From a virus (taxonomy: Duplodnaviria > Heunggongvirae > Uroviricota > Caudoviricetes): a DNA stretch of 64,000 nt. The position numbers and the translations under genes were made by a program. The notes under the pieces were generated by a model. It did no database searches, was not told where the DNA came from, and saw nothing but the letters and a program-made list of their open reading frames with translations. The stretch lies in the IMG/VR virus record IMGVR_UViG_2778261631_000002. One strand, given 5' to 3'. Of the stretch, positions 2,779 through 58,734 are shown piece after piece (position 1 is the first letter of the stretch; the number at the start of each line of letters is the position of its first letter).

Positions 2779-2821
2779 TTATGCTTCCTTTCGTAAAAAC
2801 TCTTTTTGACGCGAGGGTAAC

Positions 2822-2830
2822 GAAAGTCAC
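2822..2830 (-). promoter_or_regulatory. Candidate late-promoter element GTGACTTTC upstream of pacA
   Basis: Minus strand reads CATGTGACTTTCG about 44 nt upstream of the pacA start; same 9-mer recurs upstream of the major head gene. Confidence 0.3.
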
Positions 2831-2863
2831 ATGTCAAAAGGCCCGGAACGGGCAAGTAATCAA

Positions 2864-4448: not shown

Positions 4449-4475
4449 ATCACACCTTTCATCACTGATTGGGCT

Positions 4476-4676
4476 TTATCTGCTGCCCGGCATTCTCTGT
4501 TTAAGCGCAACCATTTCCTGACGGCATAACACAGCAATAGCGGTCCTGACTCCAATTTGCTTACCAACCAGGTATTGCTTTACCTTGCGGCGACTCACGC
4601 CATCAAGAAGCATCTTTAACGCTTCACGGGACAATTTGTTGTATTTGCGTGCCATTAATCTACTCCGCAGAACCAT
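4476..4676 (-). CDS. Small basic hypothetical protein
   Basis: 66-aa ORF overlapping the 3' end of doc; true start may be the internal Met (MARKYNK). Confidence 0.3.
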
Positions 4677-31866: not shown

Positions 31867-32151
31867 GTGGCAAGTATTGCAACAAAAGACAGCATTTGTT
31901 CGGGGCACGGAGGATTCCCATCCAGGCCTCCTGTAGAGAGTGAACCACTACTTAAAGTCAACGGAGTCGAAGTGTTAGTTGATGGTAAGCAATATGCACA
32001 GCATACCGATGGAAACAGTACGCACGGTGGGCAAGCTATATCAACCAGGGCATGGTTTACCGTCAATGGTAAAGGGATCGTATGCGTTGGTGACCCTGTT
32101 TCATGCGGATCTACCGTAGCGTCCGGAGACGGCCTGGTTCAGGTAAGTTAG
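31867..32151 (+). CDS. PAAR-like domain protein
   Basis: 94-aa ORF (GTG start); CSGHGG and GDPVSCGSTVASG motifs resembling PAAR repeats. Confidence 0.5.
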   Translation: MASIATKDSICSGHGGFPSRPPVESEPLLKVNGVEVLVDGKQYAQHTDGNSTHGGQAISTRAWFTVNGKGIVCVGDPVSCGSTVASGDGLVQVS

Positions 32152-32159
32152 GAGATATC

Positions 32160-32948
32160 ATGCTGGAAAAAGACTACCAGTTATCCGCATATAAAAAATT
32201 GGCCGCAGCCGGTGGGATGAAAACACCTGGTGCCATAACATCGGCACGAAACAGTGCTAACACGGCAAAACAGCTTGCAGAAGAATTGATCGGATTAATT
32301 TTGGATACAATTGTCTATCCCGACACTATTACCAGTTATGTTTCAACGATCAGAACAACCACAACAGGCTTAACGAACATTGTCGAACTGGCAACTAAGC
32401 ACGCGGACCTGTTGGCTGGTTATGCAGATCTGTCAATGCTGCTTCAACTCGATATTGGTTGGGATGTTTACTGCCGTGCTAATGAGCGAGAAGTTTCAGA
32501 ACTGCCGATCTCTATTGCCATTGGTGATGTGACTATTACTAAATCGCTTGAGGACGCTGTTAACGCGCTTAATACATCAAGTTTAGTCGCTGCTATGGGG
32601 GAGATTAACCAGACCCTTAACACTGGCTCAGGAAGCTCGTCAGGCTCTGGTTCAGGCGGCGGCACTGCCACTCCCCCACCAGCACTAACAGAAGAGCAAA
32701 TTGAATCTCTGAAAGTAGCAACTGAACAGTTTGGGGTTGTTTTCAACCAGACAACAGCGCCCACAACTGCGTTACAACAGCAGTATGAACGAGCGAATGA
32801 AAGCGCCAACGTAGCCATAACTGCTTATAACCATGCTATCGGTACCGCGCTTGCGGAAGCATCAGCAAATAAGGCCAGCACAGCCAGCGCAGTTGCCGCT
32901 TTGGTTCCTGATTCTGTTCTTGATGAATTAAACAAAGCGGCACAGTAA
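32160..32948 (+). CDS. Hypothetical protein with Gly/Ser-rich linker
   Basis: About 262 aa from the Met with TAGGAG SD; the ORF track extends it upstream. Confidence 0.5.
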   Translation: MLEKDYQLSAYKKLAAAGGMKTPGAITSARNSANTAKQLAEELIGLILDTIVYPDTITSYVSTIRTTTTGLTNIVELATKHADLLAGYADLSMLLQLDIGWDVYCRANEREVSELPISIAIGDVTITKSLEDAVNALNTSSLVAAMGEINQTLNTGSGSSSGSGSGGGTATPPPALTEEQIESLKVATEQFGVVFNQTTAPTTALQQQYERANESANVAITAYNHAIGTALAEASANKASTASAVAALVPDSVLDELNKAAQ

Positions 32949-32987
32949 CAAAGGACTTCATTGATAATTTTTCTTCAGGAGGAAGAC

Positions 32988-33410
32988 ATGTCATTCTTTT
33001 CTACGTTAAAAACAGCTTTGTCTTTGAAGGAGAAACTTGCTGCTACTGGTGTTCTTGTTCTGATTTGCGCACTTGTTGGTGCTGGGTTTGCATGGGAACG
33101 TCATCAGCTAAAGCAAGCCATGGAGAAAATTGGCAGTCTTGATCAGGCTGTTAAGGAACGTGATAAGTCAATAATGGATCTTAACCAGACCATTGAGACG
33201 ATGAACAAAGCAGAGCAACATTTTCACAGCCAGGAAGTGAAAAATGAATCAGAACAAGCCAAATATGCTGACAGGCAAATGGAACGAAAAGCTGAAGTTC
33301 AGAAACAACTGGTTGCGGCGGGTAATGTTCGCCAGCGTATTCCTGCTGACACTCAGCGGTTGCTCCGGGAGTCGATCAGCGAATTTAACGCCGACGCCGA
33401 CAAAGGTTAA
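32988..33410 (+). CDS. i-spanin-like protein (N-terminal transmembrane helix plus coiled coil)
   Basis: AGGAGG SD then MSFFSTLK; TM segment LAATGVLVLICALVGAGFAW followed by a charged helical region; 3' end overlaps the downstream lipoprotein gene. Confidence 0.45.
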   Translation: MSFFSTLKTALSLKEKLAATGVLVLICALVGAGFAWERHQLKQAMEKIGSLDQAVKERDKSIMDLNQTIETMNKAEQHFHSQEVKNESEQAKYADRQMERKAEVQKQLVAAGNVRQRIPADTQRLLRESISEFNADADKG

Positions 33411-33576
33411 CCACCCTGACCCAAAAAGTGCATTTATGTGCAGGATGCCAGAGTTTAGCAGTGAATATTTTGATGATCTGCCAGCGTATATCCTCGATAC
33501 AGAAACGATGCTGATGGGGATTAACAGGAAGAATCGCAACGTTAATGATTACAACCGAGCTATTAGCGGTAACTAA
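33325..33576 (+). CDS. o-spanin-like outer-membrane lipoprotein
   Basis: Signal peptide with lipobox LSGC, Pro-rich mature part; begins inside the 3' end of the preceding gene in another frame; possible longer start at 33244. Confidence 0.45.
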   Translation: MFASVFLLTLSGCSGSRSANLTPTPTKVNHPDPKSAFMCRMPEFSSEYFDDLPAYILDTETMLMGINRKNRNVNDYNRAISGN

Positions 33577-33587
33577 AAGGGATTTTT

Positions 33588-33980
33588 ATGTCTGATAAAG
33601 TAACAGTAAAGCAAACTATCAACAAAGCGACTTCAATCTACAAAATTGAGCAAATCACTGTTGGCAAGCCAGGATCTGAACAATACCGTCGTGCTTTCGA
33701 GCTTGCCGATCAGCTTGGTTTAAAACACCCGGATTGCATTGAGCATGTATTTCCGACCTATGCTGATGAGCAATGTACTCATGTTCTTACCGAAGAGGAT
33801 TTTTTCAGCACTGAAGAACGAGAAGGCGTTGATCGCTGTATTGGTGTGATTTGCTCTTCAGTGAGTTATGAGTTATTCCCTAATGTCCATGAAGATGGTG
33901 GTATTGGATACCAATTCCTGTACGAAGGCGATGAGCTTAAATGTTATGAACATGGTCTTCTCATCGAAAGCATAGAATAA
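33588..33980 (+). CDS. Hypothetical protein
   Basis: 130-aa ORF immediately upstream of the replication origin. Confidence 0.5.
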   Translation: MSDKVTVKQTINKATSIYKIEQITVGKPGSEQYRRAFELADQLGLKHPDCIEHVFPTYADEQCTHVLTEEDFFSTEEREGVDRCIGVICSSVSYELFPNVHEDGGIGYQFLYEGDELKCYEHGLLIESIE

Positions 33981-34021
33981 TACAGCTTCCTTCCAACCGG
34001 CTTTGTTGGCCGGTTTTTCAC

Positions 34022-34039
34022 TTATCCACATTATCCACT
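34022..34039 (+). promoter_or_regulatory. Tandem DnaA boxes TTATCCACA / TTATCCACT
   Basis: Two consensus 9-mers head to tail at the left edge of the origin; a third (CTATCCACA) at 34272..34280. Confidence 0.75.
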
Positions 34040-34044
34040 GGATA

Positions 34045-34099
34045 GATCCAATAATTAGGTCCATACAGATCCCAATTAGATCCATATAGATCCCTGATC
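34045..34099. promoter_or_regulatory. Cluster of five GATC (Dam) sites in the origin
   Basis: GATC at 34045, 34068, 34079, 34089, 34096 within 55 bp, as in P1 oriR. Confidence 0.75.
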
Positions 34100-34138
34100 G
34101 TTGCAGGCCGCGCCACGTCTGGCCTAGAAGTGTATCGC

Positions 34139-34242
34139 GATGTGTGCTGGAGGGAAAACGATGTGTGCTGGCGGGATAAAAATGTGTGCTGACGGGTTGC
34201 TAATGTGTGCTGGCGGGATATAGGATGTGTGCTGACGGGAAA
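34139..34242 (+). repeat. incC: five 19-bp RepA iterons (direct repeats, about 21-bp spacing)
   Basis: GATGTGTGCTGGAGGGAAA and four variants at 34139, 34160, 34181, 34202, 34224. Confidence 0.9.
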
Positions 34243-34298
34243 GCCTGGGTAGTTATCATCACTTATAAAAACTATCCACATAATTCGGAAAAAGTAAT

Positions 34299-35159
34299 AT
34301 GAATCAATCATTTATCTCCGATATTCTTTACGCAGACATTGAAAGTAAGGCAAAAGAACTAACAGTTAATTCAAACAACACTGTGCAGCCTGTAGCGTTG
34401 ATGCGCTTGGGGGTATTCGTTCCGAAGCCATCAAAGAGCAAAGGAGAAAGTAAAGAGATTGATGCCACCAAAGCGTTTTCCCAGCTGGAGATAGCTAAAG
34501 CCGAGGGTTACGATGATATTAAAATCACCGGTCCTCGACTCGATATGGATACTGATTTCAAAACGTGGATCGGTGTCATCTACGCGTTCAGCAAATACGG
34601 CTTGTCTTCAAACACCATCCAGTTATCGTTTCAGGAGTTCGCTAAAGCCTGTGGTTTCCCCTCAAAACGTCTGGATGCGAAACTGCGTTTAACCATTCAT
34701 GAATCACTTGGACGCTTGCGTAACAAGGGTATCGCTTTTAAGCGCGGAAAAGATGCTAAAGGCGGCTATCAGACTGGTCTGCTGAAGGTCGGGCGTTTTG
34801 ATGCTGACCTTGATCTGATAGAGCTGGAGGCCGATTCGAAGCTCTGGGAGCTGTTCCAGCTTGATTATCGCGTTCTGTTGCAACACCACGCCTTGCGTGC
34901 CCTTCCGAAGAAAGAAGCTGCACAAGCCATTTACACTTTCATCGAAAGCCTTCCGCAGAACCCGTTGCCGCTATCGTTCGCGCGAATCCGTGAGCGCCTG
35001 GCTTTGCAGTCAGCTGTTGGCGAGCAAAACCGTATCATTAAGAAAGCGATAGAACAGCTTAAAACAATCGGCTATCTCGACTGTTCAATTGAGAAGAAAG
35101 GCCGGGAAAGTTTTGTAATCGTCCATTCTCGCAATCCAAAGCTGAAACTTCCCGAATAA
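34299..35159 (+). CDS. repA: Plasmid replication initiator RepA (P1 R-replicon)
   Basis: 286-aa ORF MNQSFISDILYADIESKAK... recognised as P1 RepA; flanked by iteron arrays. Confidence 0.9.
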   Translation: MNQSFISDILYADIESKAKELTVNSNNTVQPVALMRLGVFVPKPSKSKGESKEIDATKAFSQLEIAKAEGYDDIKITGPRLDMDTDFKTWIGVIYAFSKYGLSSNTIQLSFQEFAKACGFPSKRLDAKLRLTIHESLGRLRNKGIAFKRGKDAKGGYQTGLLKVGRFDADLDLIELEADSKLWELFQLDYRVLLQHHALRALPKKEAAQAIYTFIESLPQNPLPLSFARIRERLALQSAVGEQNRIIKKAIEQLKTIGYLDCSIEKKGRESFVIVHSRNPKLKLPE

Positions 35160-37910: not shown

Positions 37911-37939
37911 GAAAGTCAACAAGTGACTTTCAATAAAAT
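37911..37939 (+). promoter_or_regulatory. Candidate late promoter: GAAAGTCAAC/AAGTGACTTTC dyad followed by AATAAAAT
   Basis: GTGACTTTC 9-mer (also upstream of pacA) about 60 nt before the head gene start. Confidence 0.35.
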
Positions 37940-37990
37940 CTCTTCCGAAAAGGGATTCACACAAGTGCCTTGTGTTTAAGGAAGAGTAAC

Positions 37991-39697
37991 TTGAGTAACT
38001 TACGCGAATACCAGAATCGTATTGCAGATATCGCAAAACGCTCTAAAGCCGTTCTTGGCTGGGCAAGTACAGCACAGTTCGGTACTGATAACCAATTCAT
38101 CAAAGATGATGCCGCGCGTGCCGCATCTATCCTTGAAGCTGCACGTAAAGACCCAATTTTTGCGGGTATCTCTGATAATGCCACCGCTCAAATTGCTACC
38201 GCGTGGGCAAGTGCACTGGCTGACTACGCCGCAGCACATAAATCTATGCCGCGTCCGGAAATTCTGGCCTCCTGCCACCAGACGCTGGAAAACTGCCTGA
38301 TTGAGTCCACCCGCAATAGCATGGATGCCACTAATAAAGCGATGCTGGAATCCGTCGCAGCAGAGATGATGAGCGTTTCTGACGGTGTTATGCGTCTGCC
38401 TTTATTCCTCGCGATGATCCTGCCTGTTCAGTTGGGGGCAGCTACCGCTGATGCGTGTACCTTCATTCCGGTTACGCGTGACCAGTCCGACATCTATGAA
38501 GTCTTTAACGTGGCAGGTTCCTCTTTTGGTTCTTATGCTGCTGGTGATGTTCTGGACATGCAATCCGTCGGTGTGTACAGCCAGTTACGCCGCCGCTATG
38601 TGCTGGTGGCAAGCTCCGATGGCACCAGCAAAACCGCAACCTTCAAGATGGAAGACTTCGAAGGCCAGAATGTACCAATCCGAAAAGGTCGCACTAACAT
38701 CTACGTTAACCGTATTAAGTCTGTTGTTGATAACGGTTCCGGCAGCCTACTTCACTCGTTTACTAATGCTGCTGGTGAGCAAATCACTGTTACCTGCTCT
38801 CTGAACTACAACATTGGTCAGATTGCCCTGTCGTTCTCCAAAGCGCCGGATAAAGGCACTGAGATCGCAATTGAGACGGAAATCAATATTGAAGCCGCTC
38901 CTGAGCTGATCCCGCTGATCAACCACGAAATGAAGAAATACACCCTGTTCCCAAGCCAGTTCGTTATCGCGGCTGAGCACACGGTACAGGCGGCGTATGA
39001 AGCACAGCGTGAATTTGGTCTGGACCTGGGTTCCCTACAGTTCCGCACCCTGAAGGAATACCTGTCTCATGAACAGGATATGCTGCGTCTTCGCATCATG
39101 ATCTGGCGTACTCTTGCGACCGACACCTTTGACATCGCTCTGCCGGTTAACCAGTCCTTTGATGTATGGGCAACCATCATTCGTGGCAAATTCCAGACTG
39201 TATATCGCGACATTATTGAGCGCGTTAAATCTTCTGGTGCGATGGGGATGTTTGCTGGTGCTGATGCAGCATCTTTCTTCAAACAGTTGCCGAAGGATTT
39301 CTTCCAGCCAGCCGAAGACTATATCCAGACTCCGTATGTTCACTACATCGGTACCCTGTTCGGTAACGTGAAAGTGTACGAAGTACCTGCTGGTATTTGT
39401 AAGAACTTAACGACAGAGAACATTCAGTTCAGCTCGATGGATGTGCTGTGCTACGTCCGTGATGAAAATCCGGGTAAAGCAGGCTTCGTGACTGGTGATG
39501 CTGTCCCGGCTATCCCGTTCCAGCATCCGACCACTCCGGCGCTGGTCAACCGTACCACACTGTGGGGTTCGGCTATCAACGATATGCACCCACGCAACGG
39601 CGCTGATTACTTCACTCGTGTAACGCTGACAATGGCCAAAAAAGGCGGGCTTAACTTCATAAGCGGCGACACGATTGATGCCGGTGACTCTGAGTAA
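37991..39697 (+). CDS. Putative major head protein (P1 gp23-like)
   Basis: About 568 aa from TTG with AAGGAAG SD; first large late gene after parS; size matches the P1 major head precursor. Confidence 0.5.
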   Translation: MSNLREYQNRIADIAKRSKAVLGWASTAQFGTDNQFIKDDAARAASILEAARKDPIFAGISDNATAQIATAWASALADYAAAHKSMPRPEILASCHQTLENCLIESTRNSMDATNKAMLESVAAEMMSVSDGVMRLPLFLAMILPVQLGAATADACTFIPVTRDQSDIYEVFNVAGSSFGSYAAGDVLDMQSVGVYSQLRRRYVLVASSDGTSKTATFKMEDFEGQNVPIRKGRTNIYVNRIKSVVDNGSGSLLHSFTNAAGEQITVTCSLNYNIGQIALSFSKAPDKGTEIAIETEINIEAAPELIPLINHEMKKYTLFPSQFVIAAEHTVQAAYEAQREFGLDLGSLQFRTLKEYLSHEQDMLRLRIMIWRTLATDTFDIALPVNQSFDVWATIIRGKFQTVYRDIIERVKSSGAMGMFAGADAASFFKQLPKDFFQPAEDYIQTPYVHYIGTLFGNVKVYEVPAGICKNLTTENIQFSSMDVLCYVRDENPGKAGFVTGDAVPAIPFQHPTTPALVNRTTLWGSAINDMHPRNGADYFTRVTLTMAKKGGLNFISGDTIDAGDSE

Positions 39698-45618: not shown

Positions 45619-46433
45619 TTTTCGTTATCTTTATTTTTGGCTAAAACCGCATTAAGAGCTTCGTTTACCGTCATGCAATGCGGTAGATTATCGAAGTTTG
45701 ATATCCCGCCAATATCAGGCGAACGCTTGTTCTTCAGGTAAGCATATTTCCGCGCAGCCGCCTCTACTTTCTGCTTGAACTCATGTTTTTGAGCGCGTTT
45801 TTTGGATAACCGCAGATTGTCAGCCTTTGCTTTTGCCTCAGCGATCCATGAAGTCAATTTTTTGAGTCTTGTCGTTCCGGCACCGCCGGAAACTGATCTT
45901 TTTGTTTTTTTAACTTGTGACTTCTTATTCTTTATTGCCACGTCATCCTGACAGGGGGAGGGGGTATCATTTTGACATGGGGGTGTGGATAAAAAATCAA
46001 ATAAAGCCAATGTCTTAGCGAGAACAGCTTTAACCTTGGTTGCGGCTGAAGAGATCTTTAATTTGCTTTCAATCAGCGCGTTTTTAGCGTGTTGTGCGAA
46101 GGCCAAAAAGGATGGTGTAAACCGGTACAGGTTAGCGCGGCGTTCACGGTGATCGCCGATAACAATCTCTACCGACAGGATTCCTTTGTTTACAGCTTCA
46201 CGGAATGCGCGAACGACGGTTGATTGGCTATAACCAGTTTCTGCCGCGATCATGCGGTGAGGCTTGTGAATGAAGTATTCACTGGTTGTTGCCGCGAGAT
46301 TTGCACATTGCGACAGGATATGCCCGGCGCTACGGGATAGACCGGAGTGTGTTACAAAGCAGGCCAATTCATAGCCAGAAAAAGTAAAATCGCTCATCGT
46401 TATACAGCTCAGGAAAGTGACTTTAGCCAGCAT
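45588..46433 (-). CDS. repL: Lytic-replicon initiator RepL-like protein
   Basis: 281-aa ORF downstream of kilA in a C1-controlled operon; size and position as P1 RepL. Confidence 0.55.
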   Translation of the reverse strand: MLAKVTFLSCITMSDFTFSGYELACFVTHSGLSRSAGHILSQCANLAATTSEYFIHKPHRMIAAETGYSQSTVVRAFREAVNKGILSVEIVIGDHRERRANLYRFTPSFLAFAQHAKNALIESKLKISSAATKVKAVLAKTLALFDFLSTPPCQNDTPSPCQDDVAIKNKKSQVKKTKRSVSGGAGTTRLKKLTSWIAEAKAKADNLRLSKKRAQKHEFKQKVEAAARKYAYLKNKRSPDIGGISNFDNLPHCMTVNEALNAVLAKNKDNEKWGIPAGFRG

Positions 46434-47332: not shown

Positions 47333-47349
47333 AAATTTATTAGAGCAAA
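47333..47349 (-). promoter_or_regulatory. C1 operator-like 17-mer (16/17) upstream of kilA-repL
   Basis: Plus strand AAATTTATTAGAGCAAA, about 70 nt upstream of the kilA start. Confidence 0.6.
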
Positions 47350-49002: not shown

Positions 49003-49019
49003 AAATTTATTAGAGCAGA
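49003..49019 (-). promoter_or_regulatory. C1 operator-like 17-mer (15/17) upstream of the immI operon
   Basis: Plus strand AAATTTATTAGAGCAGA. Confidence 0.5.
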
Positions 49020-58656: not shown

Positions 58657-58734
58657 TAATCACCCCGTCCGCAGGGCGGGGTGACAAGTTACTTATCTTA
58701 CAATGAGGCTTCACAACATTGATTAGGGAAAATC

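Follow-up and report, generated by a model that had tools for sequence, protein, structure and literature searches.

An operon of a P1/P7-like phage-plasmid that encodes a PAAR-fold spike tip and a predicted overlapped spanin pair

Background

In bacteriophage P1, ppfA and mlp have been described as the spanin genes, located in an operon that is unlinked to the other lysis genes (Bednarek et al. 2022, PMC9025707), an identification that, according to PMC9025707, Summer et al. 2007 had made on the basis of their predicted features. In the survey of Kongari et al. 2018 (Table S1) they appear as the overlapped pair gp064/gp063, composed of an inner-membrane spanin (i-spanin) with no periplasmic Cys and an outer-membrane spanin (o-spanin) with one, and SpaninDB places this pair in a family of its own, 'P1' (gp063 being Mlp). 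The same operon encodes two proteins of the tail tip. Cryo-electron microscopy (cryo-EM) of P1 has shown that monomeric UpfC is the tip on the gp5 trimer (PMC12810830; also bioRxiv 2025.07.21.665459), and that UpfB is the baseplate 'tripod', consisting of three trimers anchored to the spike tip, as assigned from cryo-EM density and an AlphaFold3 (AF3) fit (PMC12810830). The upfB gene is non-essential in P1.

Here we analyse positions 31867-33980 of a stretch of 64,000 nucleotides (the window) from a Caudoviricetes virus, IMG/VR record IMGVR_UViG_2778261631_000002. An initial annotation made from the letters alone had pointed in this region to a PAAR-like gene followed by an overlapping pair of spanin-like genes next to a plasmid origin. 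The region is the P1 operon upfC-upfB-ppfA-mlp-upfA and represents, very probably, a late operon of a P1/P7-like phage-plasmid in which an entry device (UpfC/UpfB) is joined to an exit device (the PpfA/Mlp spanins).

Results and discussion

Identity of the operon and of the element

The genes of the operon, with sizes in amino acids (aa) and with the Shine-Dalgarno (SD) sequence where one was noted, are the following:

31867 to 32151, plus strand: upfC, 94 aa, GTG start; PAAR-fold spike tip of the T4 gp5.4 type
32160 to 32948, plus strand: upfB, 262 aa, ATG start, SD AGGAG; a 281-aa form starting at 32103 is an older annotation
32988 to 33410, plus strand: ppfA, 140 aa, SD AGGAGG; predicted i-spanin, type II inner-membrane protein
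33244 to 33576, plus strand: mlp, 110-aa precursor and 71-aa mature lipoprotein, predicted o-spanin, in the +1 frame with respect to ppfA
33588 to 33980, plus strand: upfA, 130 aa, acidic and beta-rich; last gene of the operon

This gene order is that of the P1 and P7 records, where the counterparts are NC_005856 62950-65063 and upf63.8 to upf62.1, respectively, and the flanks are also those of P1/P7, with the divergent uhr-hrdC-dmt genes on one side and oriR-repA-parAB on the other. A megablast search with positions 31400-34400 rendered full-length matches to P1 OP279344 (98.5% identity), P7 (96.6%) and the reference P1, NC_005856 (96.3%), whose annotation was mapped onto the window with an offset of 28400. 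Protein identities to the reference P1 are 98.9% for UpfC, 99.3% for PpfA, 98.2% for Mlp and 96.9% for UpfA. The whole window is a P1/P7-like phage-plasmid, with open reading frames (ORFs) for a 754-aa Dmt methyltransferase, an RdgC-like HrdC, RepA with flanking iterons, ParA and ParB. Positions 1-25000 are 99.1% identical to P7, and positions 39001-64000 are ca. 97% identical to several P1-like elements with a coverage of only 79-84%. The element is therefore a P1/P7 mosaic, and the low coverage of its right 25 kb implies that some segments are missing from each of the relatives listed.

The three ORFs of the initial annotation (94 aa, 140 aa and a lipoprotein) exist at the places where they had been put. 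Related GenBank records already carry the labels 'PAAR motif', 'Rz-like spanin', 'outer membrane lytic protein Rz' and 'outer membrane lipoprotein Rz1'. The region is an already described P1 operon whose PAAR tip, spanin pair and dispersed location were all known beforehand. The placement away from recognised lysis or baseplate genes, which had been considered unexpected, is thus a published trait of P1, in which those genes are scattered over several operons (PMC9025707). At 98-99% identity, the virion location of UpfC and UpfB, late transcription and dispensability for plaque formation can be transferred from P1.

The spike tip and the tripod

UpfC shows the Gly/His/Cys pattern typical of PAAR-like tips. 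Its residues 1-93 match PHROG 281 'PAAR motif' with an expectation value (E) of 2e-30, and the protein also matches the NCBIfam model T6SS_PAAR_dom (E 4.5e-9) and Pfam PAAR_motif PF05488 (26.4 bits, E 8.5e-6, slightly below the 27-bit gathering score). Among solved structures it is closest to P1 UpfC itself (PDB 9vyi_A, E 1.7e-60), from which it differs only by S86A, followed by the tips 9f4b_BA (E 4.8e-10), T4 gp5.4 (5iv5/4ku0, E about 1e-7) and 4jiv_D of a type VI secretion system (T6SS; E 3.7e-4). In a phmmer alignment H14, H46, H53 and C80 are paired with identical residues of gp5.4, the apical metal site of which is made of three His and one Cys (PMC12407873). The 94-aa protein is, therefore, a PAAR-fold spike tip of the gp5.4-type family, as the initial annotation had anticipated from Cys/Gly motifs. 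Membership in the T6SS PAAR proteins was considered and rejected in favour of a phage tip, given a score of 36.3 bits with the equivalog model NF033420 against a cut-off of 124. Both an HHpred search and virion proteomics, which had been proposed as checks, were already available for P1 UpfC: the former gave a match to gp5.4, whereas in the latter the protein was not detected by mass spectrometry in virions, and its deletion was viable (PMC9024508). The function of UpfC is settled by that work together with the cryo-EM structure (PMC12810830).

UpfB matches PHROG 1559 (E 1e-137), while searches of Pfam, NCBIfam and PDB sequences gave nothing. Of all the genes of the operon, upfB diverges most from the reference P1, with 90.5% identity and 25 substitutions at the protein level and 60 changes in 789 nucleotides (25 non-synonymous and 26 synonymous codons), as compared to 2 in 423 for ppfA. 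The divergence is concentrated at positions 32000-32800, which comprise most of upfB and, before it, the 3' half of upfC. This stretch resembles a patch of recombinant origin, with a different allele of the distal tripod protein of the spike.

The predicted spanin pair

PpfA bears a single strongly hydrophobic helix at residues 17-35 (Kyte-Doolittle value 2.35), and an AlphaFold2 (AF2) model built with an alignment of ten orthologues consists of a helix at residues 13-110, a break at 111-119 and a second helix at 120-138, with a predicted local distance difference test (pLDDT) score of 72.6. The protein matches PHROG 89 'Rz-like spanin' with E 1.2e-25. The mlp gene starts inside ppfA, overlaps it by 167 nucleotides and runs 166 nucleotides past its end. 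Its product has an LSG|C lipobox with Cys40, a Ser at position +2 (there is no Asp, which corresponds to outer-membrane sorting) and one further Cys, C66. A BLASTP comparison of Mlp with the o-spanin LysC of phage P2 gave 37% identity over 68 aa (E 3e-7), covering the lipobox region, a Pro-Thr-Pro and a Cys-x-Met-Pro motif, and C66 is aligned with a Cys of LysC. Mlp also matches PHROG 30284 (E 2e-77) and PHROG 456 (E 1.7e-4), and it scores 13.3 bits with the NCBIfam model NF038368 LysC, for which the cut-off is 27.

ppfA and mlp are thus predicted to form an overlapped two-component spanin pair, with all the hallmarks that can be read from sequence: an N-terminal transmembrane domain (TMD), a helical periplasmic domain, an LSGC lipobox and an overlap in the +1 frame. 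The pair is also listed as such in the spanin catalogue. This agrees with the i-spanin/o-spanin pair proposed initially, and the predictions suggested at that time place the TMD at residues 17-35 of PpfA, the lipobox Cys at position 40 of Mlp and a LipoP site at residue 39 (Kongari 2018). The introduction of PMC9025707 gives the name o-spanin to ppfA and i-spanin to mlp; the positions of the TMD (in PpfA) and of the lipobox (in Mlp) show the reverse. A tblastn search of a phage collection found PpfA only in P1-like elements and in the Cronobacter phage JK004, a PDB sequence search returned nothing meaningful, and a word-indexed protein search rendered only ppfA proteins, with 59-100% identity, so that no independent lysis-cassette context was obtained.

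Several points weigh against a spanin function of the pair. The disruption of the outer membrane by the P1 spanins has never been verified experimentally (PMC9025707), and we found no published complementation of lambda Rz/Rz1 by ppfA-mlp. In a genome-wide CRISPR interference (CRISPRi) study, the efficiency of plating was 1.3 for ppfA and 0.24 for mlp, both being non-essential, whereas lambda Rz was essential in the same study. PpfA does not match Pfam PF03245 even at E up to 1, falls below the curated cut-off of every i-spanin model tried (19 bits versus 92.75 for TIGR03495 LysB) and gives no significant hhalign profile comparison with P2 LysB. It has no periplasmic Cys, its sole Cys being located inside the TMD and not conserved. 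The signal peptide of Mlp, with 39 aa, is unusually long, and the catalogue of Kongari 2018, which uses the 110-aa form with its LipoP site, notes a 'too long signal sequence'. Finally, there is no canonical box for Lpa-dependent late promoters (see below) upstream of upfC (31700-31866) or ppfA (32949-32987), despite the late kinetics of the operon. The CRISPRi result is a weak argument, because spanins are dispensable for lysis in shaken laboratory cultures (PMC9025707). The spanin assignment is inferred from architecture, on which it is well founded.

PpfA and Mlp might instead span the envelope in a role other than lysis, such as superinfection exclusion, receptor masking or envelope remodelling (compare the lipoproteins Llp of T5 and Bor of lambda), being co-expressed with the spike tip for entry-related processes. 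This would suit the position of the pair, whose neighbours are upfB on one side and upfA and oriR on the other: it shares the operon with the entry proteins UpfC and UpfB and is unlinked to lyz, lydA, lydB, lydC and lydD, with lyz-lydD-lydE and lydA-lydB located in other P1 operons; for two-component spanins a place beside holin and endolysin is typical, though not required. It would also suit the non-essentiality observed by CRISPRi where lambda Rz is essential, and the scores below the cut-offs of the curated spanin families. A type II membrane protein accompanied by an out-of-frame, overlapping outer-membrane lipoprotein is, however, the defining signature of spanins. The match of PpfA to PHROG 89 (E 1e-25, rounded) and the resemblance of Mlp to LysC, the o-spanin of P2, which extends to the conserved Cys, point in the same direction, strictly late expression argues against an exclusion function that protects the lysogen, and non-essentiality carries little weight for the reason given above. 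A role outside lysis appears improbable to us on these grounds, and the spanin reading is retained.

Transcription of the operon

The sites that flank the operon are the following:

31769 to 31785, minus strand: operator of the C1 repressor (P1 Op68/Odmt), ATTGCTCTAATAAATAT, with one mismatch to the 17-bp C1 consensus
33995 to 34015, plus strand: hairpin resembling an intrinsic terminator, AACCGGCTTTGTTGGCCGGTT followed by TTTC, found in a terminator scan; it closes the operon at the edge of oriR
about 34001 to 34242: DnaA boxes of oriR and five incC iterons, from the P1 annotation and the sequence
34299 to 35159, plus strand: repA, given as context from the ORF list, the sequence and the P1 annotation

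The location of the oriR/incC iterons and repA (34299-35159) directly after the operon is as described in the initial annotation. The same annotation regarded the operon as apparently repressor-controlled, which did not stand. The operator at 31769-31785 is annotated in NC_005856 as the monovalent Odmt, abutting the -35 box of the leftward promoter Pdmt of uhr-hrdC-dmt; it is conserved in P7 and also, with about 2 changes as counted by eye, in JK004. According to that annotation, it serves Pdmt and not demonstrably the upfC operon. In the RNA-seq data of P1vir (PMC8201110 Table S1), the log fold changes (logFC) of the five genes of the operon rise from 4.1-5.6 at 10 min to 10.5-11.2 at 30 min. 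The late genes of that data set behave in a similar way from 10 to 30 min (gene 23, 5.4 to 12.1; lyz, 6.1 to 11.3; lydA, 5.2 to 11.8), whereas uhr, hrdC and dmt have already reached 8.6-9.4 at 10 min (PMC8201110). Timing like that of 23, lyz and lydA indicates that the operon is late, not a repressor-controlled early one.

Direct control by C1 through the upstream operator, which would group the operon with early or plasmid-maintenance functions near repA, could be invoked because the start of upfC is preceded, at a distance of 82-98 bp, by a near-consensus operator and no other promoter could be identified. A sigma-70 scan of the plus strand gave no promoter-like site ahead of upfC or ppfA, and none that overlaps the operator, which is oriented and placed at the -35 box of leftward Pdmt. 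The late kinetics differ from those of the C1-controlled uhr-hrdC-dmt genes as well as from those of repA/parAB, and the products are virion and lysis proteins. Taken together, these data make direct control by C1 very unlikely.

A box for Lpa-dependent late promoters was derived from the annotated LPlyz promoter and from motif enrichment, and consists of a 9-bp inverted repeat, AAGTNACTT, followed after 4 nucleotides by a -10 sequence TANNNT. This motif, AAGTNACTT-N4-TANNNT, has 6 matches in the window at no more than one mismatch, versus 0.8 expected:

2814 to 2832, minus strand: late-promoter motif match
19921 to 19939, plus strand: late-promoter motif match
37921 to 37939, plus strand: late-promoter motif match
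37983 to 38001, minus strand: late-promoter motif match
46415 to 46433, plus strand: late-promoter motif match
58686 to 58704, plus strand: late-promoter motif match

Two exact matches precede the ORFs that start at 37970 (gene 23) and 58735. The only candidate box ahead of upfC, at 31816-31834, was rejected: it has 2 mismatches, a level at which matches occur as by chance (22 versus 15.9 expected), it is weaker in P1 and it is absent in JK004.

The window contains further near-consensus C1 sites, at 12410-12426, 28247-28263, 47333-47349 and 49003-49019 on the minus strand and at 28236-28252 and 18175-18191 on the plus strand. Among them, an exact match overlaps a site with two mismatches on the opposite strand, just beyond the 3' end of dmt.

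The mlp gene and its start

The lipoprotein gene had been placed at 33325-33576 and described as Pro-rich. Its end and its overlap with ppfA in another frame were correct, and the start probably was not; the composition is only modestly rich in Pro, the mature protein of 71 aa having 6 such residues. An SD, AGGAAG, precedes the ATG at 33244, from which the 39-aa signal peptide results, whereas the Met at 33325 is internal and is absent in JK004, a phage in which the ORF is conserved in its long form together with this ATG. Thus 33244 is the most likely start of mlp on the basis of this conservation.

JK004 is P1-like and divergent, and its synteny is that of the window. Its PpfA is 59% identical to that of the window, and its Mlp orthologue, the gene of which overlaps the ppfA orthologue, retains the lipobox (LSA|C-S), the Ser at +2 and the second Cys. 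In the part that belongs to mlp only, the comparison of the window with JK004 rendered 21 identical, 19 synonymous and 14 non-synonymous codons. Within the overlap, 2 synonymous and 25 non-synonymous changes were counted in the mlp frame and 12 and 18, respectively, in the ppfA frame; the predominance of non-synonymous changes in the mlp frame fits a loosely constrained n-region of the signal peptide. The substitution pattern thus indicates that mlp is a real gene under purifying selection in its non-overlapping part. That it would be a fortuitous ORF, lying within and beyond ppfA in another frame, as might be thought from several GenBank records that omit mlp or annotate only a fragment of 44-46 aa, is hardly conceivable and was rejected in view of the conservation against JK004, where the start ATG, the lipobox, the Ser at +2 and the second Cys are kept at only 59% identity of PpfA and synonymous changes exceed non-synonymous ones outside the overlap (19 versus 14), as well as of the SD of mlp and its similarity to P2 LysC. 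The JK004 record (locus L005, 4260-4592) annotates only a 44-aa ORF (4458-4592) where the complete 110-aa orthologue is located, and MH422554 likewise under-annotates the o-spanin as a 46-aa fragment.

UpfA and other features of the window

Searches of family libraries gave no function for UpfA. Its AF2 model is beta-rich and confident (pLDDT 89.7, predicted template modelling score 0.82) and matches no known fold. The family is small. Not more than 42 cluster representatives came out of an exhaustive HMMER search, and a profile search recovered diverse full-length homologues. Seven unrelated non-P1 contexts were compared:

Symbiopectobacterium prophage: Q, holin, lysozyme, an embedded Rz/Rz1-like pair, UpfA homologue, terminase
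Providencia prophage: holin, M15 endolysin, a DUF2570 i-spanin with an overlapped LysC-type o-spanin, UpfA homologue
Metagenomic phage: a PF03245 Rz with embedded Rz1, a 97-aa gene, UpfA homologue
Pasteurella prophages: holin, lysozyme, DUF2570 protein and lipoprotein, Tad2-like gene, UpfA homologue
Salmonella prophage: lysozyme, small lipoprotein, Acb2/Tad1-like gene, UpfA homologue, Nu1
Acinetobacter prophages and a JGI contig (two contexts): UpfA homologue adjoining terminase genes, with no lysis genes nearby

UpfA-related loci were recorded in our locus set at the following coordinates:

L013, 6001 to 6390
L016, 4001 to 4393
L018, 1476 to 1868
L007, 6001 to 6378
L015, 4001 to 4378

In four of the seven contexts the UpfA homologue lies within one gene downstream of a spanin pair, the pairs being mutually non-homologous, and the arrangement of P1 is alike; in two it stands beside Tad2-like or Acb2/Tad1-like genes. 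This recurrent position after non-homologous spanin pairs could mean that UpfA has a role linked to lysis. A functional tie to the spanin step, for instance as a regulator or partner, or else an anti-defence accessory function riding on late lysis transcripts, is a tentative proposal that we consider rather unlikely. Lambdoid phages have a well-known slot for accessory genes between the lysis cassette and the terminase. The position of UpfA could equally reflect such a slot, and the two readings are inseparable with the present data.

Elsewhere in the window, three tRNA genes are found on the minus strand between the ORF at 24061-25431 and dmt, with the following coordinates (the set comprises Met-CAT, Thr-TGT and Asn-GTT):

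25712 to 25787, minus strand: tRNA gene
27428 to 27503, minus strand: tRNA gene
27506 to 27581, minus strand: tRNA gene

Conclusions

The operon of the window would serve both ends of the infection cycle. Upon entry, the single-domain PAAR cone of UpfC caps the trimeric, beta-helical gp5 spike of the contractile tail and sharpens it for penetration of the outer membrane, and UpfB forms the tripod of trimers hanging on that tip. For exit, PpfA would be anchored in the inner membrane by its N-terminal helix, with the helical periplasmic domain extending outward, and Mlp, probably translated from its own SD-preceded ATG within ppfA in the +1 frame as in P2 lysB/lysC, would be lipidated at Cys40, sorted to the outer membrane in keeping with its Ser at +2, and bound to PpfA. 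Once the signal-anchor-release (SAR) endolysin Lyz has removed the murein meshwork, the PpfA-Mlp complex would fuse or disrupt the outer membrane in the last step of lysis. UpfA may be a co-transcribed accessory protein, and transcription of the operon would end at the hairpin terminator that abuts oriR.

The discovery value of this analysis is small, since the structure of the P1 PAAR tip has been solved and ppfA/mlp have been listed as P1 spanins since the surveys of 2007 and 2018. Its value lies in calibration, as a reader provided with the raw sequence alone rightly recognised the PAAR fold and the overlapped spanin pair.

Compared with known systems, UpfC resembles T4 gp5.4 and the T6SS PAAR tips (4ku0, 5iv5, 4jiv) in being a single domain of ca. 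95 aa with three His and one Cys aligned, and in capping, as a cone-shaped monomer, a spike made of a trimeric beta-helix (PMC12407873, PMC12810830). Unlike gp5.4, to which it is only ca. 30% identical, UpfC is encoded by a gene that is not adjacent to the spike gene; moreover, the P1 gp5 spike has no lysozyme domain and the P1 tip additionally bears the UpfB tripod (PMC12810830).

PpfA/Mlp, in turn, would work, by analogy of architecture, like P2 LysB/LysC and lambda Rz/Rz1. As in P2, the o-spanin gene begins within the i-spanin gene, in the +1 frame, and extends beyond it. In contrast to P2, where lysB/lysC follow Y-K-lysA in the lysis cassette, the P1 pair is unlinked to holin and endolysin; PpfA and LysB have no detectable similarity, and both P1 proteins score under the NCBIfam LysB/LysC cut-offs. 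Like lambda Rz/Rz1, the pair is predicted to comprise a type II inner-membrane protein and an outer-membrane lipoprotein that together span the periplasm, and it has a single periplasmic Cys in the o-spanin, as in Rz1. It differs from Rz/Rz1 in that there is no sequence relation, in that the genes are overlapped, not embedded, and in that the P1 i-spanin has no periplasmic Cys; mature Mlp (71 aa) is also longer and less rich in Pro than Rz1 of lambda. By sequence comparison, PpfA/Mlp is a family of its own, the only detectable link being that of Mlp to LysC.

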